Below are positions 17,501 to 60,612 of a DNA stretch of 64,000 bases, one piece after another. How positions within the stretch are numbered: position 1 is the first letter of the stretch; each line of letters starts with the position of its first letter. This DNA is from Cyanidioschyzon merolae. Its lineage: Eukaryota. Location of the stretch: assembly GCA_000091205.1 (NCBI GenBank), contig AP006494.2, one strand, 5' to 3'. Made by a program: the position numbers and the translations under genes. Below the pieces are notes generated by a model. That model was given only the letters and a program-made list of their open reading frames with translations. It was not told the DNA's origin and ran no database searches.

Positions 17501-17559
17501 CGGAGCACAGTCCTGTCCAAAAAGGCTGGGAAGCGTCCGTGGGTGGATAGTAACGTTCC

Positions 17560-18218: not shown

Positions 18219-18383
18219 TGGGTCTAGAGGTCGAGGTCATGAAAAATATGTCTCGCCTGACAAAGACGAGGTCACAGAGCCAGGCTGGCCTCATGCAGAG
18301 CCGCTCCCGAATTCGCCATACTCCCCTTCGATACCAAGTGCTCGTGCGAGGCGGCTACGAGACGCGCCCCATACGTGAGGCGC

Positions 18384-19988: not shown

Positions 19989-20029
19989 TCATAGGGCACC
20001 CCTGCAGGATATCTGCGAAACCCATGTAA

Positions 20030-21345: not shown

Positions 21346-22186
21346 GCCAGCTTTAGTGGACCTGTTCCATTGTATTTTTACATGAGTGTACTGTACAAGA
21401 ATATCGCATCGGGGTGAGCCGGCGCAACGAAGCTGCATGACGATGTGGCCCGCTTAGCGGATGGAATCCGATAGATGACAACAGAGGGGCCCTCTTCCAT
21501 CGAAAGTGCGCTGCTATGTTGGTTAAATACGATATTCTCTGTTGATTCCGCGACGTACAGCGAAGCGCGCTCAGTATTTTGGAACAAACCCTCAAAGTCG
21601 AACGGGGCTTGTCCACGACCCAGTGCCCGAGACGCGGCTGGGAAGGATTCTGTTGTTTTGGAGAGATTTACATGCTCGCTGCCCGTTCTCTGCAATTGTC
21701 GAGGTTCGAAGACAAGCCGCTTGACTCTTCGCGGCTGAACCTGAAGTTGAGAAATGCCCCTGCGTGCGATGGTCCATTATTTGAATAAATTCCTGCAAAC
21801 AACGCCGAGTCTCCCCATAAAAGTGGAAAAGCAGTTCGGGGTCGAATCACTGGTGCTGTGGCATACGAAATGGACTACGTTGGATAATCTCTTAGGAAGC
21901 TTTTTGGATCCTACTCTAGGCATTCTCAAGTCACTGCGCTCGTGAAAGAAGCGCCAGATTTGTGAACACCAGGCCTAAAACGCAATGCCTGGGAACGCGA
22001 TAACAGTAGAAGCGCGGTTTCTGGTGGCGGATCGTGGGTCACTAAGATGAATCATATTTATCCCTACTTGTACAGATTGTTCAGGTGGATTCGTGGCAGC
22101 CGCCAGCACGACGATCTCGAACCGCCAAAACCTGCCAACCTACGACGCTGTCGCACAAGAGACTGGGCACCTTCTCCAACTGCTGG

Positions 22187-25992: not shown

Positions 25993-28099
25993 ACACACGT
26001 GTACCGATGTTTTGCTCAGAGCAGTTTTTTAGAACATGCATACCAGTAAACGTTCTTTATTATTGTTTTTCCTCGGAGGCAACCGATGAAAAGAATGTAC
26101 TCTCTAGATTGGAGGGCGCTCGCTCGAAGAATTTGTACCACCACGCAGGCTACTAGTGGACGACCTCACTTATACAAGCTAGTCACTCTGTGTTCAGCAT
26201 GTGCACAAAACATGTTATTCGCAGTCCTTATCCTATAAGATGTGCACCCAAGATAGAGCTCAGCAAGCTCCTTATATATGGCCTCCTACAGATCAATCTA
26301 GTCCATTCTACATGTTCTCTAAGAATATTGGTAGAGTAGCCAAAGGATATGAAATTTGAACACTACTGGTACTAAGGATGATTAAGAGATACGGATGCGT
26401 AAAGAGACAGGATCGCTTTTCAGGAACATCTTCTCGCGTTTAATATCTTTGTACTGGTGTCATTCTGAAACGATAATGTTTATTGCAGCAGACTCTGTTG
26501 CTCGACTCATTGACGAATACTTTGTTCGGGAGAGTCAGTAGAAATGTGAATTGGTAATCCTGAGGGCAACCCGCCTTTAATTATGAAGAGACAATCGATT
26601 AAGGTGACATCATCAGTCGAAATGGCGATTCAGTTGTGTAGTCGCGAAAAAAAAAGCTCGTAATTGTTATGATCGACCAACTCATCCTCCTTTTTCGAAG
26701 CACATGTCATGGGTTCTCCATTCCAGATTGTTCTCCCACATTCTTAGGTAATATCCCTGTCTATAACTTACCACCGGCCAAGAAGTAAGCAGCCACTATT
26801 GGTGTTAAGCTGCTCCTTGTGCCAGCCTATTTTTCTATTTTCAGTCTGGCCGTTGGTGCCTTCTTAGTTGTCGCGTGCTAATACATCGCCCATGATTGAA
26901 TGCACAAGTCTAACTCATCCGTGACAGTTCGCTTCGACGAATCGTTCTTCGAGAGGTTAGTCTCTGCCTAAACCAGCCATGAGCTTCCGGGTTGCTTCTC
27001 TGCTCCTGAGCGGGACTGAGCGAAAGGTGCGCTCTGGTAGTTAGGCCCGCTCGCGATGCAAAAAGTGTCGAAATCTTACGTCAAGACTTGGAGATGTAAA
27101 TATGGAAAAGGCGAGTTTCGATCCCACTGTCTGCTCAGTTCTTCTGAATCCCAGAGCAAAACAAACAGATACTGGGCGAAGCGACCAAAACCATGCCACA
27201 CCGCAAAATAAATTGGAACGCTAAGAAAGAGTTGGTCCCTGAGAGCAATTATGAAGCATCCATTCAACTACTCGAAGAGCAGCGGCGGAGCTCCTTCATG
27301 GTTTCTCCGTTGCACCGAGGAGATGGAAAGCGAATTACAGGCACAGAGAAGACCGACGAAAACGTAGTCTGCATTCACTTCATGGAACCGAGGTCTGAGT
27401 CGAGTAATGAGACTCAGCTGCAACCGTTCAAGGCAGACGAAGAGAAACACTCCAAGGTGAGCGTGGATTCCGAGTTGAAGGGCGTCATGGCCGTCGCCGT
27501 GCCTCAAAATAAAGAGGACGGGACCAAAGACCGTACCGGAATGCAGATGACGCTACTTCATTTCCCAGGGCTCGGTACGATCGACATTCGGGAATCATTC
27601 ACTCCAGAATGGAGAGCGGTGGGTTAAATGATGGCGTCGGGAATGATCTCGACGCTCTGAGCATTGTATGGAGGAGAAGAGGGTGCTTAGCGCAGTTCAT
27701 TCCGAGCGTGGATGAGCGGTCAATATACCATGCGGGTGCGTCTTGACAGGAAAAAAATGAGACCAAGCTGGTGACGCCTACGCGTTCAGATGTACCGAGG
27801 CCAGAACGGTATATTCGTCTCCCAGTGCAGTCAGCTGGAGAAGGAAATGATCGATAAGTCGCGTCGACTCGTACAAGCCTATACCGCTAGATATGCAGTA
27901 CCGCGCTTGGACTGCACTCCTGCTACTTCAGAGGGAGCGTAGAGCGAGTGCCTAAATCGATTTTGTACGCTTCTCGTCGACAGGTTCAGGACGAGCTACA
28001 CGGATCCTGAGCATGTGTGCTCGATGACACAGATAGAATTGCACAGCGTGAATCAGAGATGGTTCCATTATATGTCGCATGGTAGGTCGAACAAATGTA

Positions 28100-30885: not shown

Positions 30886-31414
30886 GATGATCGCGTTGCG
30901 ATAGGCTGAGGTGCTCGTTCAAGAGCTACGGCCCGAGACCCCGTGCCCCGCGAACGAATGCTCTCTCGTAGAGTTCTCATGAGAACCGCGGCTGAACTTT
31001 GAGCAATAGTAGCCTAGGCTGTCACCAAAGAAACAATAAACATCGGTAGTTTTCGAATCGTACCCACATACAGCACCTACGTGGCCCAATATGAGAAGTC
31101 GGCGCTGCTGTAGACGCTATCACCGAATACCTGGCTATGAGCCAGTCTAGCAAATCTCACTGTCTGCAACGCAGGCGGCCTGCGCTTTCGTCTTCCCTGA
31201 TTGCAGACGGCTCTCGCGCATTCAGGGTTGGTTTGCTTGAAATTGTAGATCTAAGCCCTAGAATATGTTCTTTTACCGCATGCGCGTATGAAGTGGAGTG
31301 GTCCATCTAGACCGTTCTGGATGCGTGCCGTTCGCCTTCGAACAGGGATCAGTAGGCACGCTCGCTCAGATGCGAAAACGTTTACGCTAGTTCGAAAAGA
31401 AGAAGCAGTCTACA

Positions 31415-32775
31415 CCACGTCAGAATGACATACACCTGGCCCTCTAACTCAGACGCACGCTCTAAAATTTTGGCCTCTTCCGACTGGCATCAACACCAGC
31501 CTTTGTGGGATTTTTCCGCGACTGCATCATTCTCCTATATCTTACCTCCAGCATTTGAAGCGCCGGTCCCTCATATGCTGCCAGCCTCACTTTCAGCAGT
31601 CGAAGGATGCATGTGGCCGCGCTCACGTCCCAATCCCGCTCCTTCCGGGTGGTGTCAACACATCGCGTGCACCGGCGCTATTCGCGATCGACGCTTCGCT
31701 TGGCTCTTTCATCTTCTTCGTGCCTATCCACGCTGCGCCTTGCGCATCGATGACAATTCGCTGTGGCCTCGTGTTCATATAGCTCCATCTCAAATTGTTC
31801 TCCGAGGCCTGCCATGCGTCACGTGAACGCTCGCACCAGCGCTCGGCACGCGCCCTCGGAGAGCAAAGGACGCCCTCCGCAGTGCCCGTCACCGTTTCCG
31901 CGCCCGGTGCGGTCCGAAAAAGATCACGGGCGTCTTCTGAGCGATAACTCGTCGAAGGCGCTGTCCGCTGCACTATGAAGAGGGCGCCTATCCGTTCGAT
32001 GGAGGATTTCTGGTACATTATATCGTCTCCAAGGAAACACGTATCGGAAGGAAGATCCAAGCTGGAGAGCCAGTCGAGAAATTTGAACCCATCTACGCTC
32101 CCTTCGTGCAAAGCGTGGCGCTGTCTCCACTGGCAGCGACCGCTGCAGTGACCGAAGTTGGATTCCACGGCTCTTCCCGATGCAAACAGAGGATACGAGA
32201 GTTTCCGGGGGCATACCCATTGGAGATATCTCGACACAGCCGGATGCCGTTTCGTTGATGGAAACGAAAAGAGGAGGAGTCGTGTTGCGGAAGTAATCGA
32301 TTATATGACATGAGACGATCAGTGAACTTTTGGCTCGAGCTCGTAAACAAGTCTGCAGCAGTCATCGTCAGGTATTTTCCGTCGTCAACCCAGCGGTGCA
32401 AATTGCTGCGCGCACCATTGACCTTGAAACAGAGGCATAGAAAGCCTGGAGTGTGCGCGATGTGAGCATGCTATACGTAAGGAAAGGCCAAGCGAGGAGG
32501 CGTTTAGTTATGATTTGGGTCATGACGTCGATTAATTTACGAAGCCTTGATTGAAGGCTTCACGAACCATCACGATTCCGCTAACATCAAGAGTTCCGGC
32601 GGGAAGGAGTCGAAGGATCCGCAACGAAATGACAACCGAGAATCCTAAAGCGCATATGAATCTTGGTCCCTTATTGCTGCACTTGTGGTGTTGAGGTTGC
32701 GTATGTAAAGAGTGTTTGGAATAAATTGAAAGACGGGAGCAGAGCGCGCAATTCCATATCAAATTTTAATGCTAT
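31415..32775 (-). mobile_element. repeat family B, full copy; right arm of the inverted pair
   Basis: It is the reverse complement of 20030-21345. Its inner end has cgcacgctctaaaattttggcctcttcc, the reverse complement of the shared terminus. Confidence 0.85.
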
Positions 32776-33672
32776 GCCAGTAAAGTGTGCGCTGGAACTG
32801 CACGCGGGCGCATTGCGCAACCTCGAGAGCCTCGCAGGATGGCGATGACCGAAGTTGAAAATTGCTCGCTGACAATCAAAGAAAGAGAGTCCGTGACGTC
32901 CACCGGTACAGGTGTCGAACACTTGTTCTGTTTCTGGGGCTTAATATTCGGTGCAATGCATCGATCTGGGGCTCTGTGAAATTCGATAGCATGAATTGCG
33001 GGAAATAGCGGTCTCGGATACAATTTTTTCCGTACCCCCAAGCGAGGACGCCTCTAGGCTGATGTGCGTCTCCTATCGCCTCTTAATGGACCGACGAAGC
33101 CTTAATAGTTGTGCAAGGGCCGTGCAACGCGGGTTCTCCCGCAGAGCACAGCGCAGGCGACGAGACGCAGCAATCGCTCCGAACAGAACCCGCAGCGGTG
33201 CCTCCAGTTTCGCAAAGAACGATTGAGCCAGGCTCTACACCATGGGCATGGATGAAACGATCAAACGCTTTCACTTCACGGGGTGGCTGCTCCGCAAGCA
33301 CTCGAAGCTGGGGACATGCAAAGCGGAGCCGAAATCTCCGCCCTGGTTGTAGAGAGCTGCGGCACGGCGGGAGGATGCCTCCGGTGAGCTCCATCGCTCT
33401 CGCCGAGCAGACAACATCACCGATTGTTTTGATAGGAGGACCTTTGGTTCCAATTACATAACTGCGAACTGGCGAATAATGTCGGCAATCGGGAGAATGT
33501 TCTCGATGGCGAACCGGTGCTGCCGCAAAGCTCACCGGTAGGTTAGTAGCCTCGGGCGGTGATTGCTGTTTCAATCGGAGCGATTGAGGACGCGCTTCCC
33601 GTGCTATCATTGCTACTAGAAGACCTTGTGTAGTTCCGCACGCGCTGTGCTGATTGCATAGCGTCATCAATC

Positions 33673-34878
33673 ATGGCTGTGGGAACCAGATGGTTCATTC
33701 TGAGCAGGAAACTTTCAGGACTGCCTCCGCAGCGTCCTCGCCTCGAGGCGCTGCGAGCGCTGCTCCAGTCTGAAACCCCGGCTTTTGAGTTAGCTACCGA
33801 TGTGCCTGCTCAAGCAAGCGACCAGCTCGAGTGCTCCAAGCCTCACCGCGTCGACGCATACGCAGTGCAGAAAAAGCCTGAATGGCTGCAGGTGCGTCCT
33901 GCTGGTGACCACAAGTCCGTGGCTGAGTACAGGCGGCTCTACCGTGCAGTGCGTGACTTGAACTTGCACACCGTATGTGAGGAGGCCCGGTGTCCTAACA
34001 TTGGCGAGTGTTGGGGCGGTGGAACTGCGACAATAATGCTTATGGGAGACACTTGTACCCGAGGTTGTCGATTTTGCAGCATTAAAACTTCTCGAAGCCC
34101 GCCACCACTCGACCCAGCCGAACCGGAGAATGTGAGCTCTACTATTTCTCGATGGGGTCTCCGCTACGTTGTTCTCACGAGCGTCGATAGAGACGACCTT
34201 ACTGACGGGGGCGCTGCGCACATTGCCTCAACCGTGAAGCTTTTGAAACAGAGAGTGCCTTCTATTTTGGTGGAGACGCTTACTCCGGATTTCGGCGGGT
34301 CTACGTCGGCTGTTCACACGGTCGTTGAGTCCGGAGTCGATGTTTTCGCGCATAACATTGAGACTGTTGAGCGACTTCAACATGTTGTTCGTGACCGGAG
34401 AGCCGGTTACAAGCAGAGCCTGTATGTTCTGGAACAAGCCAAGGCGCATCCACAGCGTGGCAAGGAGATAGTGACCAAGTCCAGCATCATGCTGGGCGTC
34501 GGAGAGACCCGAGCAGAAGTCAAGCAGAGTATGATGGATCTTTTAAATGCTGGGGTCCAGATTCTTACATTGGGACAATATCTGCGACCGTCTCGAAAAA
34601 ATATGAAAGTTGAAGAATGGATTCATCCTGATGAATTCGAGGAATGGAAACACGAAGGTGAGAAACTCGGCTTTCTTTACGTAGCATCGGGCCCACTTGT
34701 CCGTTCTTCGTATAGAGCAGGTGAATTTTTCATAGAGTCTTTGTTCCGGAAAGAGCACAAACAAAGCGCCTCCAGGGGAAGCACCTCCTGGGAGAAAAAT
34801 ATTGGGTCAGGCACAGTTGCTGAGGCGGAACGACAGTATCAAGAGAATTTATCGCAGAGACCCTCACCTGTCGCCTAG
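33673..34878 (+). CDS. LIAS: lipoyl synthase, mitochondrial-type
   Basis: Radical-SAM and auxiliary cluster motifs [14 protein letters not shown] and [12 protein letters not shown], and a full-length family match. The N-terminal presequence is Arg-rich. Confidence 0.9.
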
Positions 34879-37668: not shown

Positions 37669-38931
37669 CCGTACCTTGGCGACAGCAGTCCAATAAGAAG
37701 CTGCGCTGGCTGGTCTTGCGGCACTGCAAACTACCCTCAGAGCACATTGGCAGGTAGAGCGCGCCCCTGCGACGTCCGAGAATCACCCGCCTCTGTACGC
37801 GCGCGAAAACAGAGCGCTGCGACCGGAGTTGCGATTTCGATGCCGCGCAGCGCCTCGACGGCAACGCGGGTTATCAGCGTAATCGTGCGCGGCAACTGTT
37901 CATGTGCGTAGTTCAACGCGATTCCTCATCGCTCAGGCGGGTGCGTCTACGCGGAGCGGTGTTTATTCGTTGCTCGATCATGCAGGGGAGTGCGAGCGGT
38001 GGCTTCCGAGTACGAGATGGAGCACAATTACGTTTTGCTTCTTGTGTGGGGCCCTTCGCACGGAAGATTTTGAAAGTTCACCGTTGAGAGCGGCCTACCG
38101 TTCGGATGTTGCCCTCAGAGTGTAGATGGTCATCGCTAGCGATAAATGTGGATGCTCCTCGCGTGTAGAGCTTGCTGGCATGGACGGAAACCTGAGTGTT
38201 TATCACGGTTTTCACATTCACGCTTCAACCTTGACTGTCGATCTTAGGGCGGGATTTGAAGAGATTGCAGCGCCGATTCGCGATAAGCGCTCAAGCGTCG
38301 TGTAATCCAATCTACCAAATAATTTGCAGCATTTCGGGACTGATGTTTCCTGCCAGGACACCTTGACAGGTGCTCGTCTAGAAACGTGCATGATGATTGG
38401 CTTCATTGCTGTTGCCACTGAGCAAACTTCGGGATAATAGTGCCCTCATGGTTTCTCTTCTGAGTCCAAACCGAAAAGGGATCCCGAAGCGGACAGCGTG
38501 CATCAATTGGTGCACTTTTTGGTTAGTAACGGATCTGGCGCGGGGCGTGGAACTCGAAACTTTCTGGCGCTCGTCTGGTTAACCACAATCGCAGCCGATC
38601 CCGATATGGGTACAGCAAAGCAGCTCAGTCTCCGCGAGGCGATCAAAGCAGGATGCGTCCGGCATAGCCGCACGTGCCCTCCTTTGTCTCGATGCCCAGA
38701 GAATCCTCGAATAAATCTATCCTTTTTTCTTAGGCAAATAATTACCTGGCGTCGTTGGAATGCACACGAGCTTGGATTGCAGCGGCAGTCGTTTTCCCAA
38801 TTTTCTTGCGAACCGCGCATCCTGGAATATGGTTACATGTACCGATTTCGCCTCAGGAAGAAAGCCGTCCGCTTTGACGAAATCATGCTCGTTATTTTGA
38901 CCACAATGGCGGCTTTGAAGGGCCTCACTTT

Positions 38932-40312
38932 TTCCGATTAACGCACCACACTTTGTCAGACAAGATTTTTACGGGTCCATCGATTTTCCTCCAGCGCCCG
39001 CTTCCGAGTTGGGGTTTCTTCGCACAATCATCGATACCTGCTGTTGGCGGCTTGTTCCGAGACTGCCTACCTTTCCCTTATCTTGTCTCTGGCTATGAGT
39101 ACACCGGTCTCTCGTGCCTCATCAACTCCCAGATCTGATGTCGATGGATGCTGATGGCAGTGCAAGTCCCGATTACACCGCACGGGGATATTGTCGACGC
39201 ATTTCGTGCATTGGCAAATGTTGCAATGTATGCTTCATTTGCCATATTCACCTTCTTTGTATACAGCCCCTGTGCTCGCTTCGTAACGGCAACACAAGGC
39301 TATGCGTAGATGAGACCTTATCCTCACCACAACTCATCCTCCAAGCGCCACCGCGTGGCGCGTGAGCACTTGATTCAGCGCTCGATACATGCCCCCGAAG
39401 GGCACAGAGTCCTCCCTGGATGCTCTTCGCGACATCTGCAACCAGTGCTGCACCGCACGACGACGGGTTTCTTCTAGGCGACAAACTCGGCGAGTACGCT
39501 GTCCAACGGGCGCGTAGGCGCACATTGTCCCATTCGATAGCGGATTTGTGGAGAGCGATGTCGTCTAGTGTGAAACAAGGACCAGAAGAAATATCGACGC
39601 TGGAGATCGAGTCCAGAATATTCTCTCCATCCGCGCTCCCTTCGTGCAATAGAGTTGCATAGTACCCATTGGAAGCGATCATTAGATAGCAAAGGCGAGT
39701 CCGAGACCATTTTGGATGCAAAGCGAAGCGACGGGAGCCTCCAGGAGCATATACCATGAAAGGTATCAGGCTGTGTGGAATCCCGCGACATCGATGGACA
39801 CAAGGCAACATGGTTTGTCTTTCTGACGGACATTATCATCGGATATGACACAATCTGTGAACTTTTGGCATGAGCTCCTGATCAAGTCGTCAAGGAACCT
39901 GGTCGAGTACTTATCATCGTCAATGCAGCGGAGCGCGTCCCTGTGCCCGCGAGCTGCCTTGAAACAGTCAGACCGAAAGCTTGGGGAACTCATGATTTGG
40001 ATATGCTTGATGCAGGAAAAGCGGAGGAATGGAGGCCTTTGGATAAGAACTGCATAATGGTATCGGTTATTTTACTGACGTGGGGTTGAGGGCGTCGCGA
40101 ATCATCGTGGTTTCGACGAATTAACGGATTCTAGCGACAGGAAGGGACTGCTCCGAAAAGATGACCAGTATCGTAAACCAAGGAAAGAGTGCGTAAGTCC
40201 GCATTGATGTGCTTCGAAGGTCAAGGCTGTTCATCTAGAAAAAGCTGGGGAAAGAACGGAAATACAGGAGGAGAGCGAAGAATTCCGTGTTCTGTTTTGA
40301 TCTGACATGAGA
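38932..40312 (-). mobile_element. repeat family C, copy 1 (about 1.38 kb); left arm of an inverted pair
   Basis: It is the reverse complement of 43843-45224. ORFs 39248..39811, 39114..39365 and 39845..40057 are identical to 44152..44901, 44784..45035 and 44088..44300. It encodes a transposase-like fragment on the minus strand. Its inner end is ...gttttgatctgacatg. Confidence 0.85.
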
Positions 40313-42376
40313 AGGAAGCGTAGCTTGGTTTTTGATTTGCGCGCTCATTTCTCTCCCCAGTTTCCTGCAGCTACACGTTTGGGAACAAACATGGCTCACC
40401 CTGTGAGTCTTCACTGGTTAAGACGGACGGATGACGTAGCACTTCACCGGGACGCTATCAATTCCGTGGTTTCAGTGCAATCGAGTGAATCGCAGCCTCA
40501 AGACGAGCTGTTGCTGTCAGAGAGTCGCGCTGGTGCTACGGCTTCGACGTTGGGAACGTCATCAAAGCCTTCGTTAGCTGAAGTTTCAACCGGAATTAAG
40601 CCGCAAACCAATATACAACGTGACTCACTTCGCTTACCTGAAACAGAGCGAGAGTATGAAAAGAGATCGCGTTCGAGCCAGTGGGCGAATGGAGACCTGA
40701 GTTTTCCCGAGAGAGAATGCCCGACTGTGGAAGTGAAACCTCGTTTCAGGCGAAGAATCATTTTTGGTGAGAGAAGGCAGTACGCGTTCTTTCAGGATGC
40801 TTTGTTTCCAGCTCTGTCTGACGCACCAGAGACGAGAGGTGCTATGGCCGATTCGCCCTCCGCGGACACTCCAAAACCCGCCTCCCTTGAAAGCTGTTCA
40901 GAAAGGGGAAACGGAGCCGCTTTGCACAAGACGAGAGACTCGTGCGACGTCGTTCCTGCGTTTCGGGAAAGCATTTGTTTGGGAGCTGATGCGAACAGAC
41001 TGAGCGCCGTATCCGGAGACTCTCTCAAGCTCGAAGATGATTCGAACCAGAAGCATTTTTCACTGGATAGCTCCCTAGGCCCGAACTCAAGGGCTGCCTT
41101 ATCTGATGAAATTAGCTTCCCAGGGGCACGGACGCATAGCTCAGAAGCGCTGCAGTTGGAGCTGAACAAAAGCGCCGAGAATGCGGAGTGCTCAACGATC
41201 TACGTCTATCTTTACCCCGATGGTTATTCATTTTCAGAAACAGGGTACCCTAGGTTCAGTTTCGATGGAAACTCTGATCGAATACTCTTTTGCTTAGATC
41301 AGGGTGTCCTGCCCTCTAGTTTTGAATTTCGCGCTCCGAAACGGGCTGACAGCATCAATAACGTTCGTGACGCGGTCATACTGGATTATACGCGGCCGAA
41401 GCCAAAGAAATTCCACATTACTTTGAGGCCTGACTATTTGAATATATGCCTCGCAATTGCAGAAAGTCCATACGCTCGGGAACTAAGACAAGCAGATAGA
41501 GTGCTGCAGTTGGAAGCAGAGCTACTTAAGCTTTTGCACGTTTTGGATGACTTGGAGCCTCGACTTGACCATCAAACGCTGTCGTCTCATACAGAATCCG
41601 CGCAGGTTCTTAACTTTGCTAGAACTGCAAGGCAGCATGTGGAGGTTACATTCACTAGATCACTTCCGCTTTTGCGGCTGTTTCTGACGAAACGTATGAA
41701 CAGAAATCGTCGATCCAGAGGAAAAGCAAACATCGATCTTGCATCACAGATGCTGCTTCTCGTGGCTGGCAACGAAAACCTTAACCGTTATCGTCGTACG
41801 CGAATGCGCAGCGTCACCGGTCTTCCAAGGCAGACTTCTTCCCTAGAGCTGAAGACGCCGGCAGACATTGCGGGCGCCCAACCTCTTCGAAGACCTAGTT
41901 TCTCAAACGTCATCGGGCGTTTGCTTCGGCAGCTTCGTTTCGTGTTGCATCGAGCGAGTGCAACCACGATCCAGCCAAAGTCCAACGAAGCCCCAGCTGT
42001 GACGAATGCGGACGAACCCTCTGGACAGTTGGATACCCCTACTGCGTCTGATCGAAACGCCCGACCTGCATCGAGATCGGGCGAACCAAGAATTGTATGT
42101 CTACTCGATATCATCGTCCGACCGCAACGCGGATGCGAATGTGTCATCCGCAGAGGTCAGGAAAAGAATCGAGATTTGGACATTCTACGCATCCCCGTTG
42201 GATCGGAAAGAAACGCTCACATTTTTGCGAACCAGTTTCGGCGCCTCATGCGTGGGGAAGGTTTCGTATGCGAGCAGGACTTGACGCTTCCGAGCGAGAA
42301 CAGGGTCACAGGGGAAGATAACGCTTCGGAGACGCCAGCGGCGGACGCTAGTGCTTTGCGGTTAACGAACGAGTAA
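40307..42376 (+). CDS. hypothetical Ser-rich protein (689 aa)
   Basis: A long uninterrupted ORF with low-complexity Ser/Arg-rich stretches. I recognise no domain. Its first ATG is the last three bases of the C inverted-repeat arm. Confidence 0.35.
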   Translation: MRRKRSLVFDLRAHFSPQFPAATRLGTNMAHPVSLHWLRRTDDVALHRDAINSVVSVQSSESQPQDELLLSESRAGATASTLGTSSKPSLAEVSTGIKPQTNIQRDSLRLPETEREYEKRSRSSQWANGDLSFPERECPTVEVKPRFRRRIIFGERRQYAFFQDALFPALSDAPETRGAMADSPSADTPKPASLESCSERGNGAALHKTRDSCDVVPAFRESICLGADANRLSAVSGDSLKLEDDSNQKHFSLDSSLGPNSRAALSDEISFPGARTHSSEALQLELNKSAENAECSTIYVYLYPDGYSFSETGYPRFSFDGNSDRILFCLDQGVLPSSFEFRAPKRADSINNVRDAVILDYTRPKPKKFHITLRPDYLNICLAIAESPYARELRQADRVLQLEAELLKLLHVLDDLEPRLDHQTLSSHTESAQVLNFARTARQHVEVTFTRSLPLLRLFLTKRMNRNRRSRGKANIDLASQMLLLVAGNENLNRYRRTRMRSVTGLPRQTSSLELKTPADIAGAQPLRRPSFSNVIGRLLRQLRFVLHRASATTIQPKSNEAPAVTNADEPSGQLDTPTASDRNARPASRSGEPRIVCLLDIIVRPQRGCECVIRRGQEKNRDLDILRIPVGSERNAHIFANQFRRLMRGEGFVCEQDLTLPSENRVTGEDNASETPAADASALRLTNE

Positions 42377-43709: not shown

Positions 43710-43842
43710 TCTTTATCCAGTCCAACAAATCGGACGTGGCTATGCGCTCTGTTCACACACGAAAGATAAAGTGTACACCTGTGCAGGGTTAAGAAAAATT
43801 TGACGTTTGTTCACGCGCTTCAGGGAAGCTACTTCCATGTCA

Positions 43843-45224
43843 GATCAAAACAGAACACGGAATTCTTCGCTCTCCTCCTGTATTTCCGTTCTTTCCCCAG
43901 CTTTTTCTAGATGAACAGCCTTGACCTTCGAAGCACATCAATGCGGACTTACGCACTCTTTCCTTGGTTTACGATACTGGTCATCTTTTCGGAGCAGTCC
44001 CTTCCTGTCGCTAGAATCCGTTAATTCGTCGAAACCACGATGATTCGCGACGCCCTCAACCCCACGTCAGTAAAATAACCGATACCATTATGCAGTTCTT
44101 ATCCAAAGGCCTCCATTCCTCCGCTTTTCCTGCATCAAGCATATCCAAATCATGAGTTCCCCAAGCTTTCGGTCTGACTGTTTCAAGGCAGCTCGCGGGC
44201 ACAGGGACGCGCTCCGCTGCATTGACGATGATAAGTACTCGACCAGGTTCCTTGACGACTTGATCAGGAGCTCATGCCAAAAGTTCACAGATTGTGTCAT
44301 ATCCGATGATAATGTCCGTCAGAAAGACAAACCATGTTGCCTTGTGTCCATCGATGTCGCGGGATTCCACAACAGCCTGATACCTTTCATGGGATATGCT
44401 CCTGGAGGCTCCCGTCGCTTCGCTTTGCATCCAAAATGGTCTCGGACTCGGACTTTGCTCATCTCAATGATCGCTTCCAATGGGTACTATGCAACTCTAT
44501 TGCACGAAGGGAGCGCGGATGGAGAGAATATTCTGGACTCGATCTCCAGCGTCGATATTTCTTCTGGTCCTTGTTTCACACTAGACGACATCGCTCTCCA
44601 CAAATCCGCTATCGAATGGGACAATGTGCGCCTACGCGCCCGTTGGACAGCGTACTCGCCGAGTTTGTCGCCTAGAAGAAACCCGTCGTCGTGCGGTGCA
44701 GCACTGGTTGCAGATGTCGCGAAGAGCATCCAGGGAGGACTCTGTGCCCTTCGGGGGCATGTATCGAGCGCTGAATCAAGTGCTCACGCGCCACGCGGTG
44801 GCGCTTGGAGGATGAGTTGTGGTGAGGATAAGGTCTCATCTACGCATAGCCTTGTGTTGCCGTTACGAAGCGAGCACAGGGGCTGTATACAAAGAAGGTG
44901 AATATGGCAAATGAAGCATACATTGCAACATTTGCCAATGCACGAAATGCGTCGACAATATCCCCGTGCGGTGTAATCGGGACTTGCACTGCCATCAGCA
45001 TCCATCGACATCAGATCTGGGAGTTGATGAGGCACGAGAGACCGGTGTACTCATAGCCAGAGACAAGATAAGGGAAAGGTAGGCAGTCTCGGAACAAGCC
45101 GCCAACAGCAGGTATCGATGATTGTGCGAAGAAACCCCAACTCGGAAGCGGGCGCTGGAGGAAAATCGATGGACCCGTAAAAATCTTGTCTGACAGAGTG
45201 TGGTGCGTTAATCGAGAAGAGTGA
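43843..45224 (+). mobile_element. repeat family C, copy 2; right arm of the inverted pair
   Basis: See copy 1. It carries the best-preserved transposase-like ORF (44152..44901, 249 aa). Confidence 0.85.
44152..44901 (+). pseudogene. decayed DDE-nuclease-like ORF, possibly PIF/Harbinger (DDE_Tnp_4)-related
   Basis: CLVSIDVAGFH compared with GAIDGTH (D1). LISMIASNGYYATLLHEGSADGENIL compared with [29 protein letters not shown], where the first Asp is lost. SAIEWDNVRLRARW compared with VIERAFGLLKGRWRIL, with the same IE-8aa-RW spacing. Related fragments occur in family B (GYAPGNS, DDIMYQKSSIERIGALF) and family D (GYAPGGSHPF, DDIAFHKSSIDW). The Harbinger assignment is an inference from motif memory and was not searched. 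Confidence 0.4.
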
Positions 45225-45469: not shown

Positions 45470-45960
45470 AACGATCTACCACATTAGGGTGCATGAGAAC
45501 GCACATGTCCAGACGCCTCCCAACCATTTTTGACAGGGTGCTTGCTATCAGTTCCAGCTGCTCCTTGTACACCTCTGGAATGGTAGGCTGACCCGCAAAG
45601 TCGGATCTTGTCAGCTCTTCAGGTCTCGTCCTCATAACCAAACATCGTCTGAAATTGTTGGCGGCGATGATGGCCCGGTTCAGGAACTCCAAGCGTTTAT
45701 TGCCACTGGTGGAACGGACTTGTGCAAGGAGTCCTCGAACTCGCGCCCTCTGTGCCATTCGCTGCTCTTTCAGCTCGCCGTGCTTTCCTATCGTCCAAGT
45801 GCTCCGCTGGCTTCTCTCGATCTCGAACTCGTGAAGTGTATAACCCATTGCATTCCTTATTTTCGAAAATGAACGCACTCGTTTATGCCGTTGGGTAGGG
45901 ACCTTCTCGGATGGATAAGGACTTATGGAAGAAAGACAAATACGCCCCGGTATCACCGTG
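45470..45960 (-). repeat. dispersed repeat family F, copy 3
   Basis: Its reverse complement contains aatggcacagagggcgcgagttcgaggactccttgca, matching F1 and F2. It lies about 250 bp outside the C right arm. Confidence 0.55.
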
Positions 45961-47094
45961 ATGAACGCGTCAGCGATTCACCCAGTAGAGCGATCGTAAA
46001 GATTAAGATAGGAGACACTGCTCGAGGAGATGAAGCATAGAGCGTACGGAGGAATGCAAAGCAGGCCAAGACCTATAGAACTGGCAAGAGCTCGAACGTA
46101 AAGGATATGGTGTAACATCACAGTTTCCAATAGAGGGAAGTCCCAAGATGTCAGGGAAGAGTCATCTATGATTCGACGAATTGGGTGCTGCTGTATGGGC
46201 CTTGTCTACGAGCGAGACTGACGCCGCAAAATATACCCACTGCAGCTAGAATAGATAATGACTTCGTTCTCATCGAGTTCGATCGTACATACAACGGGCC
46301 TGCTCCCAGAATACCCATCTGCGCTCCGACCGTTTCTCCCGAAGAGAGTCTCATGGGCTGGAAAAAGAAACCGAAATCCATGCGCATTATACGAATAGGG
46401 ACGTTCGCGGAATTCAGTAGTTGGCATATCTGTGGAGATCACCGTCATTGAAATTGGACTTTTTATGCGACTGTGTCCGAATGTTCTCAGGACCACACGA
46501 AAAGGCCTTTTGAGAAACAGAGGTGTTTGCGTTGGATACGGTCTTCGCTTTTGCCTTCTCTAAGGTGATCAACGAGCCGTTTTCTACAGTTGACCCCCAG
46601 CACGATTTGAGCACGTCGTTTTCTGGCGCAGAGCGTGTATACTTCTTTCTTACAGTGTTTGACAATCACTCGAGTCCTGCAGTGTGACTGCCCTGAAGGA
46701 TGAATGTAGTCCTCCTTGCACTTCTCAGTAAAGAGTATATCCTATGGGCAACTCGTCAACGATCTATGCTGTACACTGCATCATGATTTCGATCATCTGC
46801 TTTACACTGGGAAAAAGCATAGATTACGCATAGCGGGGGTGAAATATATTTGATTTGAAAGACTAATAAGATCGTTGTCTGGTGCCGATTGCAATTAAAT
46901 TTGAGTAATATTTCCACCCAACACTGGGTTCGCGTGAAGGTTGCGAGAAGGGCTACAAGAGTTAAGCTCTTTCGAACTGGAGATATTCACCGTGGATCTT
47001 TCAGGTCCAAAAGGATATAAAAGAGCGCTTGAAGACATCTCTTCGTGCTTGCTATATTTGAAAGAGTCAAATATGAGAACTAGTATTTAGTTTA

Positions 47095-48822
47095 CATTCA
47101 GAGTACTAAATTCTTGAACAAGTCTACCGGCAGGTTATTTTTGTGTTTGGTTGTTTTTCCCACAGGTATTGAACAATAAGGTTGTCCGTTGGTGAGAGAA
47201 TGGCGGTGGATAGAGTTCATGCCATCGCCGCTAGCATACCGACACGGATCTTACTTGTACAAGTCAGTCATTTTACATTCAGCAGGTGCACCAGCGACCC
47301 TTGTGGCAGTGCTTGTTCTGAACATTGCGTACCCAAAATACAACGTACTACAATGTATATATTCGACAATCTTCTGATTCGCTCATTGTATCACATAGAT
47401 CCTCTGAGAAATACCATCTGCGAAGCCACATGATGTGGGGCTTTCACATCTTTCATACTAGCGGTGATAAACAGACACCGATGAACAGAAAAGTGCGCTG
47501 CGATGCACGACGATTGCGTGTTGCCAGCAGATTGTCGAATTCGCAGCGCAAGGCGAAGGCCCGCTGCAGGACTGACTGGCGTTCGTGTCAGTCGGTGATG
47601 CTCCATTTTGCAGAAACGATCAACTCGTATATATGTCCTCACATAGGGGCGACACGAAGTTCTTAAAGAGGCGACAAGCGACATTGAAGGCGGCATGAGC
47701 CCTAGCGGTGATTTCTTCTGGTGATCTCTTACAAATCGCCGAACGAAAGGACATTCCAATACCTCATCCTCCGGCGAGGCACCTCCTGGATTCCTTCACC
47801 CACATTCCTTGGTAATGCCCTTAGACAGTATTGCTTTCCCTCGCTAAACAGCGCTCAGGCAGTATGCAGCTGTATCTGTCGTTGAGCTGCCCTACTTTTC
47901 CAGAGATCGGCAGTGTCGGGAGTCGGGCCCCAGAGACGCCAAGAGGCGTACCGACCAATGAAATGACAGCGTCCGGACCCGTCACGACGCTCTGAGACTC
48001 GTGTCGAACGGAGTGGATGCTGTGTGAGATCCATTCATAGACACGTGCGCGTCCACGTGGCTCGTGGGGACGCTCCCTCGCAGATGCACTTGAGACGTCG
48101 CTGTGGTCATCAACAGCTTGGCTCTCCGGAGGCAGGAAGCGTGCATTCTCCAGCATATTCAATGAGTTAGCAACGTATCGGACCGATAACTCGCAACGCG
48201 TGGAGGTAGCGAATGGCGCTGGACGTGCACTCGCGAGCAACGGCTGCACTCATGCTCGGTCGGCGAGAGCGTGCAACCACAGCAGGAATCGATTCTTCAC
48301 GGCTCCCGTGGATGCGTTCAGAGCGACAAACACGCGTGACCAGCGCGAGTGCGCACAGTGACCGGTAGAGAAGAAGAGTGTGAAACAGAGCTGCATGCAC
48401 GTGGTGGTGTACGGTGAGCTGATTGAGCGCCGGATGGCGAGAGAATCGAGCGAGACGTGCTTGCTGTGATGCGCTTCAACAATCCAAAATGCGCTCAGGC
48501 ACGTCCTGCACCGAGACTCGAACGCCCAATCGGTATCTGGAAATGTTTCGTGCGTTCGGAGCGTCCAGCGGTTTGTGTCATACGTACATTCGAGGCAACT
48601 GTTTCATACTGAGTGTGGGGATTGTGCTGGAATGCTGGAGACTTGCGCTGAGAAAATCAGAGGCTGGCAGCAATAGGAGCGGATTCCGGCATGTAGCAGG
48701 GCAATAGTATGGTACGGTTAGGAATCCAGACAGGATGTGGCACAGCGTATATAGAGAGGAACCTGTTTCCCATGGTAGTTGGTAGACGATGCTAGTGTTT
48801 CTCTCTTTAAGATGCTATTGAT
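47095..48822 (+). mobile_element. repeat family E, copy 1 (about 1.73 kb); left arm of an inverted pair
   Basis: It is the reverse complement of 55683-57412. ORFs 47182..47433, 47391..47759, 47821..48249, 48167..48400 and 48423..48707 are identical or near-identical to 57072..57323, 56746..57114, 56256..56684, 56105..56338 and 55798..56082. No recognisable coding domain. AT-rich tracts flank it. Confidence 0.85.
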
Positions 48823-49463
48823 TATAGAACAGTTTACAAAGCTTGGGTTCTGAAATTCTCACGTTGATTTGTTCATTAATTGTCTTGTCGACTCCAACGA
48901 GCTCTTCGAGTGCTGTGCTAAATGAATCGATACTTCTTCAAGACGAAACATAGCATAGTGCTTTCAAGATGCGAGGTCTAGTACACTATTCATGTACTTC
49001 TGCATACAATGGAACTCCAAGACCGTGGGCACTTTTGGAGGTATCTGATTTCATTTTCGAAGTACCCCTGGCGGCGAGGGTTGGTGTGATCCGATTCAAT
49101 ACCCGTTCTAAAACGTCATTCAGGAGAAAGTCTCGCGAGAGTATTTCAGGTGTTTGATCGGCTAGTTGCTCATGGGTGTTATTGGGTATGCAGCTGTCCC
49201 AGTGAAATCGTCTGTGAGCTCTCGAAACAACTAAAGAAGCGGAGTACTTCGTAGAGTCCCATGACGAAAAGCATGCCTTGTCAAGCTGTGTCCGATGCTT
49301 CCCTTCTTCTTTGCTCGGTAACCGGTGCTTTATACACAAGAAGTTCATGTTTTCTAATTCAGTCAACGATGCCCATTAAAAACCAGGGAAGCATACTGAA
49401 AACTAGCGCATTCTAGCATGGATAAACAATTATTGTTTGGAGCGAAACGACTTGAGAAAAAGT

Positions 49464-53329: not shown

Positions 53330-55682
53330 CCGAGAAAGAGCTGCTGTAACCCGTCGCAGAGCAACAAATGCTATCCTTGTGTCGCAGACTTCTCGAACAC
53401 CAGCATGGGCTGTTCGAGCCGCCCTGGGTTGCTGCTCGCCCTGTGCGTCACAGAGTTCATCAGGTGTTCCGCCACGTGAGGTATAATGTGCTCTTCACAA
53501 CCAATATTCGGCCCGATCTATTCCCATGTTGTCCCTGCTGTACACTTCGTGCACATATGTGCACACAGGTTTTGTTCAACCAGCGCCCTCATTTTGAGAC
53601 GGACCTCCTTTTTCTGTAAGATGTTGACTTTCACGAACATGATCTGGAAGAATTCCTCTCAAAGACTGTGTATGTTAGCGTATTTCGAAGCGCCCCGGGA
53701 GAGAGGCTGACGGTTGTTTTGTTGCAGTACGCGGTGCCCAGTGAAAGCTTCTGCTTTGACTCGACTGGTGCCACGATACGCACGTGGACACGTACTCCGA
53801 AAACAGTCGTTTCGTTTGGAGAAATATTGGAATTGTGATAGCTCTTCGCTATAGTGAGACAGGACTTTTGTTTGTGCTTGGAACAACCTACTTGCTCTGG
53901 GACACGTATGACTCTGATGTGAAGGCCGTTCACGCAGCAGATTGCGTGACACGGTCGGTGGAGTTTGCGCCGTGTACGGAAAGATCGTTTGTAACTTTAT
54001 CCGGAGATCTCAACTCAACGCCCGAATTGCATGAGATAGAGCTGCCTCTGAATGGTTCAACGATTCTGCCGAGCCTTGGAGCCAGTGCACCTTGCAGTGA
54101 TTCGAGGACCACGGAAGCCTCCCTATCCTCGCCAACAACTCCGAGCCCTGGAACGGCTTACTCGAAAGCAAGATTCGCTCGCTATCCCCGACTTCCAGAG
54201 GAACGTATTGTGCAGCTTCCAGAAAATCAAACTTTGTGCCATACGTACGATGCGATGGTAACGGATGTGCTCGAGCCTCTGTGAGCGACTCGGAGGAAGA
54301 AGTTTTGTATAAGTTATTGACTCTATTCTCACTCAACCATCGCATGCCGCTGCGGAACAAATCCTTTGCTCTTCAGAGGGTTTCGAGGAAGAATCTTTTA
54401 GTCCAATGATGTATCCCCTTCGGGTCACTTCCCCGCTGTGGCACACACAAGCTTTATGTCGGATCTGAGTCAGTGCGATTTCTCGAACGTCATTGCTTGG
54501 TTTTATAAGAAAACAAAGGGGCACCACTTGCCCAGGGTTTGGTTCATCGCGAACACTTGATCGTGAACATCGGAACATCGCTCTATTGCGAAGCTGGTTG
54601 CACCGAGCCACAGAAGAGCGGTATTTCTAGCAAGAGGCTCGACCCGAAACTCTGAAGAACACCATCGGATGAAGTGAGAGCATTATCACACTGTCCGACG
54701 TGGCCTGTGAGCGCCGACACTCATCCAATATATTCGTGTTCACGAGCTGCTGTTGCATAGAAAAACCGCAACAGCAGCAGCTGCTACAACGAGCGTTCCT
54801 CTGGTGTGCGACACCGGCAGGATTTACATCGGGCGCAGAGCCTCTCAACAGCGTGAGGCGGTTTTATGTCTCAAATGCCGGTGCGAGCCGTTCAAAGCAA
54901 ACATTTTGCATTGAGGAATACTACACTGCCAGCATCTTGTTCATAATAGATTCATGACACCGAGGAGGTTTCGTAGAGAATACGTGATAAGAGTCTGAGC
55001 ACATTCCTGAGGAGTTTGCGCTACATCGGTGTGCCGTATGGAGCATTTTATGGACGGAAAAGTATGAGGGCACGAAACTTCAGAACCTCGAATCAAACTG
55101 CAACATATCTACAAACTGTCAAATAGGACGTCCACTTGCCTTGTCTCTATTCTTCTACAGGTAACAGGGACTGATGCAATGAATTTTTAGTGGCGTATTG
55201 GAATCCGGGCCGAATATCCAAAGAGGCGCTGGATGCTCGATTTCCAATCTGTAGCCGCGCATCCGGGCAAGGTTGCTCGGAAAACCGGTCTATTTCGGCA
55301 GCAGTCCGCAGTTCGCGACCTCAGACATTGCGCGCGGACTACACACTAGAGCAGAGCATGCGGCTGGCCGCCCTGCATCCTGATGCAACCACAGACGCAG
55401 TAGGTAGCCTCGACAACAATAGACCGAAGCGTTGCGCATCAAGGCACTTTTGGTGGTTGCTCGCGGACGAAAAATTTTATCCCAGTTTTTCCACTTAAGA
55501 TCGTATGAACACGAGATTCCCAACCAACATGCCTAATAACAACAAGAGATAGAGCAAATCTATCACAGAATTTGAATTATGAAGGTCTTCATTCGATGTG
55601 AAGCTTTTACAAGCGTTATAAACACCTGCGGATTCGAACGCATATACTGTTGCTATCAAAAGCGTCTGATACATATCCTACA

Positions 55683-57412
55683 CTCAATAGCATCTTAAAG
55701 AGAGAAACACTAGCATCGTCTACCAACTACCATGGGAAACAGGTTCCTCTCTATATACGCTGTGCCACATCCTGTCTGGATTCCTAACCGTACCATACTA
55801 TTGCCCTGCTACATGCCGGAATCCGCTCCTATTGCTGCCAGCCTCTGATTTTCTCAGCGCAAGTCTCCAGCATTCCAGCACAATCCCCACACTCAGTATG
55901 AAACAGTTGCCTCGAATGTACGTATGACACAAACCGCTGGACGCTCCGAACGCACGAAACATTTCCAGATACCGATTGGGCGTTCGAGTCTCGGTGCAGG
56001 ACGTGCCTGAGCGCATTTTGGATTGTTGAAGCGCATCACAGCAAGCACGTCTCGCTCGATTCTCTCGCCATCCGGCGCTCAATCAGCTCACCGTACACCA
56101 CCACGTGCATGCAGCTCTGTTTCACACTCTTCTTCTCTACCGGTCACTGTGCGCACTCGCGCTGGTCACGCGTGTTTGTCGCTCTGAACGCATCCACGGG
56201 AGCCGTGAAGAATCGATTCCTGCTGTGGTTGCACGCTCTCGCCGACCGAGCATGAGTGCAGCCGTTGCTCGCGAGTGCACGTCCAGCGCCATTCGCTACC
56301 TCCACGCGTTGCGAGTTATCGGTCCGATACGTTGCTAACTCATTGAATATGCTGGAGAATGCACGCTTCCTGCCTCCGGAGAGCCAAGCTGTTGATGACC
56401 ACAGCGACGTCTCAAGTGCATCTGCGAGGGAGCGTCCCCACGAGCCACGTGGACGCGCACGTGTCTATGAATGGATCTCACACAGCATCCACTCCGTTCG
56501 ACACGAGTCTCAGAGCGTCGTGACGGGTCCGGACGCTGTCATTTCATTGGTCGGTACGCCTCTTGGCGTCTCTGGGGCCCGACTCCCGACACTGCCGATC
56601 TCTGGAAAAGTAGGGCAGCTCAACGACAGATACAGCTGCATACTGCCTGAGCGCTGTTTAGCGAGGGAAAGCAATACTGTCTAAGGGCATTACCAAGGAA
56701 TGTGGGTGAAGGAATCCAGGAGGTGCCTCGCCGGAGGATGAGGTATTGGAATGTCCTTTCGTTCGGCGATTTGTAAGAGATCACCAGAAGAAATCACCGC
56801 TAGGGCTCATGCCGCCTTCAATGTCGCTTGTCGCCTCTTTAAGAACTTCGTGTCGCCCCTATGTGAGGACATATATACGAGTTGATCGTTTCTGCAAAAT
56901 GGAGCATCACCGACTGACACGAACGCCAGTCAGTCCTGCAGGGGGCCTTCGCCTTGCGCTACGAATTCGACAATCTGCTGGCAACACGCAATCGTCGTGC
57001 ATCGCAGCGCACTTTTCTGTTCATCGGTGTCTGTTTATCACCGCTAGTATGAAAGATGTGAAAGCCCCACATCATGTGGCTTCGCAGATGGTATTTCTCA
57101 GAGGATCTATGTGATACAATGAGCGAATCAGAAGATTGTCGAATATATACATTGTAGTACGTTGTATTTTGGGTACGCAATGTTCAGAACAAGCACTGCC
57201 ACAAGGGTCGCTGGTGCACCTGCTGAATGTAAAATGACTGACTTGTACAAGTAAGATCCGTGTCGGTATGCTAGCGGCGATGGCATGAACTCTATCCACC
57301 GCCATTCTCTCACCAACGGACAACCTTATTGTTCAATACCTGTGGGAAAAACAACCAAACACAAAAATAACCTGCCGGTAGACTTGTTCAAGAATTTAGT
57401 ACTCTGAGTATA
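55683..57412 (-). mobile_element. repeat family E, copy 2; right arm of the inverted pair
   Basis: See the E copy 1 entry. Confidence 0.85.
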
Positions 57413-57461
57413 ACGCTGAGCACCTCCCTAACTATACTGGGAGCGAGCTGTTTTTCGAGAC

Positions 57462-59143: not shown

Positions 59144-59499
59144 TCGATATTTGAGTCACTATACAGTCCAAGAAGAGAGATATAACGAACGGTGTTTGGA
59201 GAAATCAGCCGACCACACCGTGTAAGGCGACACCACGATCGAATTTGCTATCTATATATATTCAGTGGTTCAACCGTTTCCCGGTCTTGCGTGTCAATTT
59301 TCCGAAATTGTTTAGATGTAGTCTCGACATTCGATGTGCGACAACATTTGCATATGTGATTATACGCATTTTTCGAGCTCTCGGCGTTGTTTTCGTTGTG
59401 GCTCCTTCGTCTCTTTGCAGATGGTAACTTTACGTCACCAGAATAAAAATGAGTCGTGATGTGTTCGAACAAGAGTTCGTAAAACAATATATATCATGA

Positions 59500-60612
59500 A
59501 CCGAGTCGAACGCACACTGCATCACTCTTCGCTTTTTTCATGTACAGCAATCTCAAATCACACATTCTTCAAGTATTAGGTCGTTCTGTTTGAGGCCAAC
59601 TGGTATGTGCAGTGGTTCGCGCTGCCAGATCCACTACTGAAAAAACTTGACGTCGCCCCTTGACACGCTCCTCACGCGCTCATGCCAGGAGTTTTACTGA
59701 ATTTGTCACATTAAACAATCGATTCTGTTCGCAATGCAAATCCGCCTCTCTATTTGGTCGTCGACGAAACCGGATTCCCCATCAGGTTGATAGGTCTGAC
59801 GGGATATGCTCCCGGAGGCTCTCATCCGTTCCGCTTGCATGGAATAGAGCCTCAGACTCGCTCTTCAATCATCGCGAGGATCGCTTCCAGAGGAGCGTGC
59901 GCCACTGCTTTCCACGAAGAGAGCTTAGACAGATCGAATTTTCTCGAATTGTTTTGCAACCTGGATATTCCTTCTGTTCCATGTTTCATCATGGACGACA
60001 TTGCGTTCCACAAATCCTCGATCGACTGGTACAGTGTGCACATGCGCATGCTGCTGATAGAGTACTCGTCGATGTCATTGTATGCAAGAAGCTCTTGATC
60101 ATAGTGTACTGCGCCGTGCTTAGATACGAAGGAGCGTATTCGAAGAAGCCTTCTATACCCGTCAAGCGTATGCGCCGAGCGATGAAGCACGTGTTGATCC
60201 ACCATAGTGCTGTGCTCGGAGGAAGAGAGGCGGTGCATGTATGATTACGCCTGCCAACAGCCGAGTGTCACCGTTGCGAAAGACGCGTAGAAGCACCATA
60301 CAGGGAAGATGAAATCGGCGAGCGAAGCTTAAATTGCAACTTCCGCCTGTAAAAGAAGTGCGTCACAAAAAGACGGAGGCGCAGAAGATGAGACTCTAAC
60401 GCAGCCATCAACATACTTCGACAGCTGACAACGGTGCCGGAGGGAGAAGAGAGACTGCCATATTTGAAGACCGGGGATGAGATAGGGTAAAAGGAAGCAA
60501 TGGGAAAAAGCCTAAAAAGGATGAAGATGTTAACGCTGGGAAGAAACCTAAAGTTTAGAGTGTGCGTCCGAGTTTGCAGATCTGTTCCAGTTCATTCTGA
60601 CATGGGTGTAAT
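59500..60612 (+). mobile_element. repeat family D (single copy in this window); related to B and C
   Basis: It encodes a decayed protein fragment (59754..60098) with GYAPGGSHPFRLHG and CFIMDDIAFHKSSIDW. Its 3' end (60535-60612) is clearly homologous to the B terminus (..aaagtttagagtgtgcgtccgagtttgcagatctgttccagttcattctgacatggg). The 5' boundary is uncertain. Confidence 0.6.

Follow-up and report, generated by a model that had tools for sequence, protein, structure and literature searches.

The 249-aa open reading frame (ORF) at 44152-44901 (+ strand; ORF249 hereafter), found in a 64,000-nucleotide stretch of nuclear DNA from chromosome 12 of Cyanidioschyzon merolae 10D (the window), has very probably stayed open by chance within a dead transposon copy that belongs to the IS630/Tc1/mariner superfamily (Pfam DDE_3, PF13358). 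The copy that holds it, element c1 (43830-45202, + strand), is 1373 bp long, complete and dead, and it is one of eight copies in the window: a1/a2, b1/b2 and a partial b copy, c1/c2, and e.

Homology of ORF249 to IS630/Tc1/mariner transposases

The exact product of ORF249 is known only from metagenome gene calls and has no entry in the NCBI annotation of the reference genome, and a word-indexed homology search with ORF249 alone returned the self-match only. Its decayed DDE core spans residues ~60-178 and contains D68 and D145, both of which occupy invariant columns in an alignment of 23 sequences; residues 1-55 are read outside the ancestral frame, and nothing can be learned from the C-terminal part. 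Pfam hmmscan gave DDE_3 (23 bits) as the sole match of ORF249, and no DDE_Tnp_4, Plant_tran or other DDE model was matched by ORF249 at E<=10 or by a consensus of the copies at E<=1. This consensus, the majority sequence of the four families a, b, c and e, reopens the frame and brings the DDE_3 match to 33.1 bits (E=6e-8; cutoff 28.6), a rise from ORF to consensus that is expected of true homology.

An exhaustive HMMER search with a profile built from the window alone matched 355 proteins. The strongest were short fragment ORFs on C. merolae-like contigs, followed by intact proteins of 300-400 aa that were matched at residues ~130-240. These intact relatives combine helix-turn-helix (HTH) domains with DDE_3 at E 1e-18 to 3e-29, and four of the five that were scanned passed the cutoff of the NCBIfam model 'IS630 family transposase' (NF033545; 116-142 bits vs 100), the fifth (P0133) falling slightly below it at 89.9 bits. 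A second profile, of length 313 and built from six intact HTH+DDE_3 transposases, matched the translated consensus at E=1.3e-39 over its positions 54-255, and it also matched single copies: the coding frame of c1 at 8e-21, e at 2e-17, a1 at 4e-14 and b1 at 5e-7 in the window, and the further copy L007 at 2e-22. The motifs pair up between consensus and profile (SIDEAGF with vsiDEvgf, GYAPGGS with GYapkG, IDDIAFHKS with mDNvaFHKs, YSPMLSP with PpysPdfNP), and BLASTP of ORF249 against P0070, the closest intact relative, gave E=3e-15. Towards the N-terminus, the consensus, a1, b1 and L007 can be aligned to the second HTH and linker of the profile (positions 49-130); the match to its first ~50 positions is marginal (E=1e-3).

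An AlphaFold2 model of ORF249 computed from the 23-sequence alignment reached a predicted local distance difference test score (pLDDT) of 64.5 overall and 77-87 in the core (a model from a 9-row, window-only alignment was useless, with a pLDDT of 37.8). When this model was compared with the PDB by Foldseek, the top match was Mos1 (E=1.6e-4, prob 1.0), followed by the Sleeping Beauty catalytic domain and then by retroviral integrases, with modest template modelling (TM) scores (Sleeping Beauty 0.42/0.46). The predicted fold is RNase-H-like and has solved Tc1/mariner transposases as its best matches. A phmmer search of the consensus against PDB sequences gave insignificant SETD8 matches only.

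The relics resemble IS630/Tc1/mariner elements in the HTH + DDE_3 architecture, in the order of the motifs (DE..F, GY.p.G, DN..FHK, PPYSP.NPIE), in the D-to-E spacing of about 35 residues in P0070 (counted by eye), and in being single-gene elements of ~1.3-1.4 kb with terminal inverted repeats (TIRs) of ~28 bp and tips next to TA. They are unlike them in that every C. merolae copy is a pseudogene that lacks the third acidic residue, and in that a TA duplication is not demonstrable. Judged from these sequence comparisons, homology to IS630/Tc1-type transposases is overwhelming once the consensus or the intact-relative profile is used.

Several observations weigh against this assignment. On its own, ORF249 (23 bits) stays under the DDE_3 gathering score (28.6), and the NCBIfam IS630 model gives the consensus only 20 bits. 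At the element ends, pairwise alignments of 5' and 3' TIRs are mostly no better than shuffles, the 5' tips of the b family and of e score poorly in the position matrix described below, and a clean TA on both sides was found in no window copy. As to the dead state of the family, a search of 1.84 billion representatives and of the fetched loci found no intact C. merolae-type transposase; the genome itself was not scanned for one, so that a copy elsewhere is possible.

Structure and decay of the element family

The families, which were grouped by self-comparison and nucleotide alignment of the window repeats, are homologous across the whole ~1.37 kb at 55-70% nucleotide identity, far beyond chance; in the self-comparison, repeats were near-identical within sets and 64-70% identical between sets. 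Element a1 (4102-5481, + strand; 1380 bp) has a direct copy, a2 (24621-26003, + strand; 1383 bp), with 99.6% identity over 24612-25956. Family b comprises b1 (20020-21390, + strand; 1371 bp), its inverted twin b2 (31411-32780, - strand; about 1370 bp, 99.3%) and a truncated copy with the 3' half only (17556-18226, + strand), directly before which lies a fragment of the Fanzor1 repeat CMe-1A. Element c2 (38947-40322, - strand) is the inverted twin of c1 at 99.2% and carries private frameshifts in strain 10D; measured as a repeat, the ORF-bearing sequence is 99.2% identical to its twin at 38925-40314 over 1394 bp. Element e (59231-60610, + strand) occurs once; of all the copies it preserves the motifs best (VVDETGF, GYAPGGS, MDDIAFHKS), and its 3' TIR is the best as well. 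Related, interrupted reading frames were found by tblastn with ORF249 at 59721-60068 (47% identity, E=1e-26), at 20348-20805 and 31995-32452 (E about 1e-10), at 4440-5178 and 24959-25695 (E about 1e-8), and also at 17552-17641.

The complete copies are 1370-1383 bp long from one tip to the other and have TIRs of ~28 bp (TACACCCATGTCAGA...). Nine 3' ends, from several families and from extra copies on C. merolae-like contigs, align to ..TTCTGACA(T/C)(G/C)GGTGTA and are unrelated past the final TA. Because pairwise inverted-repeat tests were weak, we used a position matrix, trained on seven 3' tips only, to scan both strands of the window (127,950 positions). The best non-training matches were the inverted 5' tips of a1, c1 and a2 (ranks 5-7), then the untrained 3' tip of a1; a1 is matched at both tips (4102-4127, - strand, 17.7 bits; 5456-5481, + strand, 13.4 bits), and the 5' tip of c1 (43830-43855, - strand, 16.7 bits) is the second-best non-training match. 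On the intact relatives, the same matrix ranked both TIR arms 1 and 2 in L004 and L005, and the left arm 1 in L012. The 5' TIR of c1 (43830-43857, + strand), found with this 3'-tip matrix, reads TA followed by CTTCCATGTCAGATCAAAACAGAACA. The 3' terminal region of c1 (..CTTGTCTGACAGAGTGTG; 45175-45202, + strand) is a degenerate counterpart of ..TTCTGACATGGGTGTA and was placed by alignment to the other families, a less certain placement as c1/c2 identity goes on for 22 bp, to 45224. TA ends most of the aligned 3' tips (7/7 in the matrix) and precedes the 5' tip of c1, a position at which a has TG; no TWA repeat flanks any window copy. Given their uniform length and the retained HTH region, the elements are complete, full-length units that have undergone no internal deletion. 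Intact relatives with a transposase alone are found on contigs of 1.3-1.4 kb. In one C. merolae-like copy (L006 4026-4151, - strand), the ~100-bp 3' end is tandemly duplicated, each unit ending in the TIR-tip motif, after which comes TCTCA.

All window copies are dead. As a first-pass annotation of this DNA had proposed, several families encode related decayed proteins (tblastn finds interrupted frames in all sets) with the common blocks GYAPGGS, ..HEGS.DG..L and CF..DDIA.HKS.IE, and the copies are DDE transposase pseudogenes on mobile elements of ~1.3-1.4 kb; IDVAGFH is indeed the first catalytic Asp motif, and the second Asp lies within DDIAxHKS. The same annotation had seen stops or frameshifts in all copies and had taken the catalytic Asp residues as lost, which was too sweeping on both counts. 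Stops or frameshifts break the core in a, b, e and c2, but the ORF of c1 is open, with its first ~55 codons out of frame. Likewise, the third acidic residue is lost in every copy (c has YSPSLSPRRNP instead of PPYSPxxNPIE) and the first Asp is replaced by Asn in b, but a, c and e retain this first Asp, and all four families retain the second. Such an incomplete D, D, E/D triad fits pseudogenes of the family and not active members. Upstream of the first Asp, the ancestral frame codes for the HTH (SVSRQLAGAAIRAAGLT), so the first ~55 residues of ORF249 lie in a different frame.

In a 92-codon stop-free core of the four families, the ratio of nonsynonymous to synonymous divergence (dN/dS) between families is 0.59-0.99 with dS of 0.5-0.9; most of the between-family divergence is neutral and old. 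The six further copies (L006h, L006i, L007, L008p, L008m and L009) are 63-70% identical to all others, and none of them is intact. A decayed family copy also lies on chromosome 5, in P0198 (BAM79278.1, CME048C), which is annotated as a 334-aa hypothetical protein, and a locus search with the consensus gave two loci, both decayed.

Enzymes of this superfamily bind the inverted repeats, excise the element and insert it into a TA dinucleotide. The ancestral element would have been about 1.37 kb long, with ~28-bp TIRs beginning, after TA, with CACC, and with one transposase gene whose product of ~310-340 aa would have combined N-terminal HTH domains with an RNase-H-like DDE catalytic domain. An old burst probably produced many copies in C. 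merolae, followed by nearly neutral decay. As no copy is able to code for an active enzyme, the elements have stopped transposing on their own, and the present role of the relics is probably passive, as dispersed homologous repeats.

Near-identical pairs and inverted repeats

Members of the near-identical pairs lie 3.5-19 kb apart and have their inactivating lesions in common, and all copies outside the pairs are singletons at 63-70% identity. The simplest reading, with about an even chance, is that the pairs are linked old duplicates homogenised by gene conversion, in which case conversion would have held the copies alike with their edges escaping. What suggests this is that the 99% tracts and the elements have different limits, with diverged tails beyond: the tract reaches from 9 bp outside the 5' tip to 42 bp short of the 3' tip in the a pair, and from ~10 bp inside the 5' end to ~47 bp short of the 3' tip in the b pair, and past the ends of these two tracts the TIR regions of the two members are homologous but strongly diverged. 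In the c pair, the tract extends 22 bp beyond the inferred 3' tip. Site 44362, which is G in both c copies of 10D and C in all six environmental contigs, fits gene conversion directly. The frame-breaking changes of c2 (c1 coordinates 44370, 44392 and 44450-44464; indels and clustered substitutions) are private to 10D and absent from 6/6 environmental contigs, including copies at the c2 position. What speaks against conversion is the flanking identity, 9 bp outside the 5' tip in a1/a2 and 22 bp past the 3' tip in c1/c2, which would not be expected if independent insertions had been converted, except where the tips have been placed wrongly.

That flanking identity looks more like a duplication at the DNA level, and the pairs could, though with lower probability than for gene conversion, reflect recent copying of already dead elements, either mobilised in trans by an active relative or duplicated nearby without a transposase. 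The pair differences of 0.4-0.8% and the common lesions agree with recent copying, as does the local hopping for which Tc1/mariner elements are known. However, no intact C. merolae-type transposase turned up in the representatives or the fetched loci, and no TA or other target duplications are visible. Moreover, the a and b tracts end 42-47 bp before the 3' TIR tip, yet each member retains its own diverged 3' TIR past the tract, so the recipient site already held an element.

The surrounding region is intron-poor and gene-dense (genes include GMP synthase, RabGAP, E2F/DP, TAP42, an HtrA-like protease and APC8), its lipoate synthase ORF (33673-34875) is identical to BAM80779.1/XP_005536815.1, and neither an Rfam nor a tRNA scan of the window gave a match. 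Environmental contigs spanning a c copy show two arrangements: L014, L015 and L018 have the window order, and L013 and L016 have the reciprocal junctions expected of an inverted 3.5-kb segment between c2 and c1, a segment with two genes (a 689-aa ORF and an epimerase). The c copies in L013 and L016 are reciprocal c1/c2 hybrids. A further inverted pair, d (47092-48827 and 55678-57413; 1736 bp, 99.65%), unrelated to the DDE elements and to CMe-1A, flanks about 6.8 kb with the TAP42 and HtrA-like genes and is crossed in flipped orientation by L016; Pfam searches of the ORFs of the d repeat and of the short Fanzor fragments gave nothing. The flipped contigs could come either from crossover within the inverted repeat or from assembler path-switching inside 99%-identical repeats.

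Two side observations concern the same stretch. The 5' TIR of c2 (40307-40322) contains the first ATG of the 689-aa host ORF (MRRKRS..), which is the CATG of ..TCTGACATG, and environmental gene calls begin six residues later (683 aa). Another, diverged repeat pair (10-388 and 46219-46597, the latter on the - strand) is 67% identical over 384 bp.

Alternative origins and the Fanzor1 connection

It is very unlikely that ORF249 is a domesticated, host-functional protein derived from the transposase. The 249-aa frame is open in c1 of 10D and in 6/6 environmental contigs, including copies at the c2 position, but the environmental strains are about 99.5% identical in DNA, so the open frame is uninformative on selection. 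Domestication also fits poorly with a protein whose first ~55 residues are off the ancestral frame, whose third catalytic residue and C-terminus are gone, whose twin c2 is frameshifted in 10D, whose families differ with a dN/dS of about 0.6-1.0, and which is unannotated in the reference genome.

PIF/Harbinger transposons, with 3-bp TWA duplications, a second, Myb-like gene and autonomous copies of 3-5 kb, share with the relics the general plan of DDE cut-and-paste transposons with TIRs. The first-pass annotation had taken the copies for internally deleted Harbinger (DDE_Tnp_4) derivatives, which now appears extremely improbable: it drew on motif resemblances only, among which the position of the first-Asp motif was guessed correctly, and it named the wrong superfamily. 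Neither DDE_Tnp_4 nor Plant_tran was matched even at E<=10, with DDE_3 as the one Pfam answer for ORF and consensus alike, whereas the homology to IS630/Tc1 transposases is strong and specific, the best fold matches are Mos1 and Sleeping Beauty, and the tips end in TA, not TWA. Internal deletion is contradicted by the uniform full-length 1.37-kb units (all complete copies are 1370-1383 bp), by the HTH region that still aligns and by the intact relatives on contigs of 1.3-1.4 kb. TWA duplication, Myb-like gene and 3-5 kb size are all unseen in the relics; there is no second ORF for the expected Myb-like partner, and the longer relatives (3.1-4.0 kb) carry Fanzor1 in its place. The 'IE-8aa-RW' block once read as a Harbinger signature falls after the second Asp and before the degenerate YSPxLNPIE motif, where conservation is poor.

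The intact relatives with visible neighbours are elements bounded by 28-31-bp TIRs and flanked by TA on both sides, which hold a transposase and a Fanzor1 (TnpB-like) gene. In L004 (571-4586) and L005 (378-4395) the elements are about 4.0 kb long and carry an 898-aa ORF with IDPG, a CxxC..CxxC zinc finger and RDGNAAKNI; in L012 (4244-7388) the element is 3.1 kb long, with a 686-aa ORF ending in ..YTTCCCHKCG..CINC..HRDVNASKNM, and the contig has a second transposase/TnpB-like module at 1-1205. Of these Fanzor1-bearing relatives, one is GC-rich and one AT-rich. 'Mariner' elements with Fanzor1 (PUl-1, PGv-1 and others) have already been described (Bao & Jurka 2013, PMC3627910), and the closest intact relatives have this layout, from TA through TIR, transposase, Fanzor1 and TIR to TA; against the profile of the relatives, the PUl-1 transposase scores E=5e-36. 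Unlike that type, the C. merolae relics are transposase-only and, at 1.37 kb, have no room for a Fanzor, and PUl-1 shows a marginal BLASTP match to the C. merolae consensus (E=0.08) and a different TIR.

C. merolae has its own abundant Fanzor1 repeat, CMe-1A (Bao & Jurka 2013; the 253-copy WSV486-like repeat of Nozaki et al.), which is of unknown class, lacks TIRs and makes up about 5% of the genome. CMe-1A is interspersed with the relics in the same genome, but it has no sequence similarity and no TIRs in common with them. In the window, fragments matching its published consensus lie at 14680-15213, 16995-17537 and 45585-45847 (- strand); in the first two, an internal deletion joins consensus ~790-970 to ~2830-3088, and ORFs in the fragments retain the RuvC-III motif (DSNAAISI; NRAIIAANNF). 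A TIR-like tail after fragment f1 (about 15290) had no score in the matrix. In two places (window 17537/17556; L006 10369/~10430, ORF P0039), a CMe-1A 3' fragment is fused to the inner part of a DDE copy that has the same orientation; the fused fragments end at consensus ~3081-3092, just before the Fanzor stop codon, and the DDE junction positions differ. Upstream of both fusions the DDE 5' half is absent, so these are not simple insertions. We rejected the possibility that CMe-1A and the DDE relics form one transposon, as they have no common sequence, the TIR motif is missing from the CMe-1A ends and the CMe-1A Fanzor is only distantly related to the Fanzors beside the intact relatives; the link of CMe-1A to the relics' transposon is circumstantial.

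There is next to no chance that the copies are themselves fragments of CMe-1A, encoding a TnpB-like RuvC nuclease and not a DDE transposase: CMe-1A fragments do occur in the window, one directly adjoining the truncated b copy, and the environmental ORF P0039 runs from the Fanzor C-terminus straight into a DDE copy, but blastn of the CMe-1A consensus against all DDE copies gives E>1, the TIR motif is absent at its ends, and ORF249, whose homology is to DDE_3, has no zinc-finger or RuvC motifs.

Tentatively, and with less than an even chance, the relics of this IS630/Tc1-type transposon may not be inert: in this compact genome the inverted pairs (c2/c1 and d) may serve recombination that flips the gene blocks between them, of which both orientations occur in environmental assemblies, and may be homogenised by gene conversion and, separately, the transposon clade may have brought Fanzor1, now CMe-1A, into C. 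merolae. The idea of such a vehicle comes from the observation that every intact relative with visible neighbours carries Fanzor1.

The relics themselves are ordinary and ancient, and the superfamily is already known; this member is new. C. merolae, a model for minimal eukaryotic genomes, is cited as nearly transposon-free, with 26 class I and 8 class II elements (PMC1955436). The latter, which Nozaki et al. 2007 (PMC1955436) call 'class II / transposase-related elements', are reported to have weak similarity to bacterial transposases (E 0.071 to 6e-7), as would be seen with IS630-like relics; that paper names no family and no coordinates. The 64-kb window alone has eight copies, and besides these there are CME048C on chromosome 5 and others on C. 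merolae-like contigs; more than eight copies must exist, and the published class II count is therefore an underestimate. The relics thus reveal a sizeable, ancient and largely unannotated IS630/Tc1-type family, for which the protein search returned dozens of different fragment ORFs, and the consensus, TIR motif and coordinates permit its proper masking. The link to a Fanzor1-bearing clade and the 99% inverted pairs offer modest, testable leads on how repeats may shape a very compact genome.

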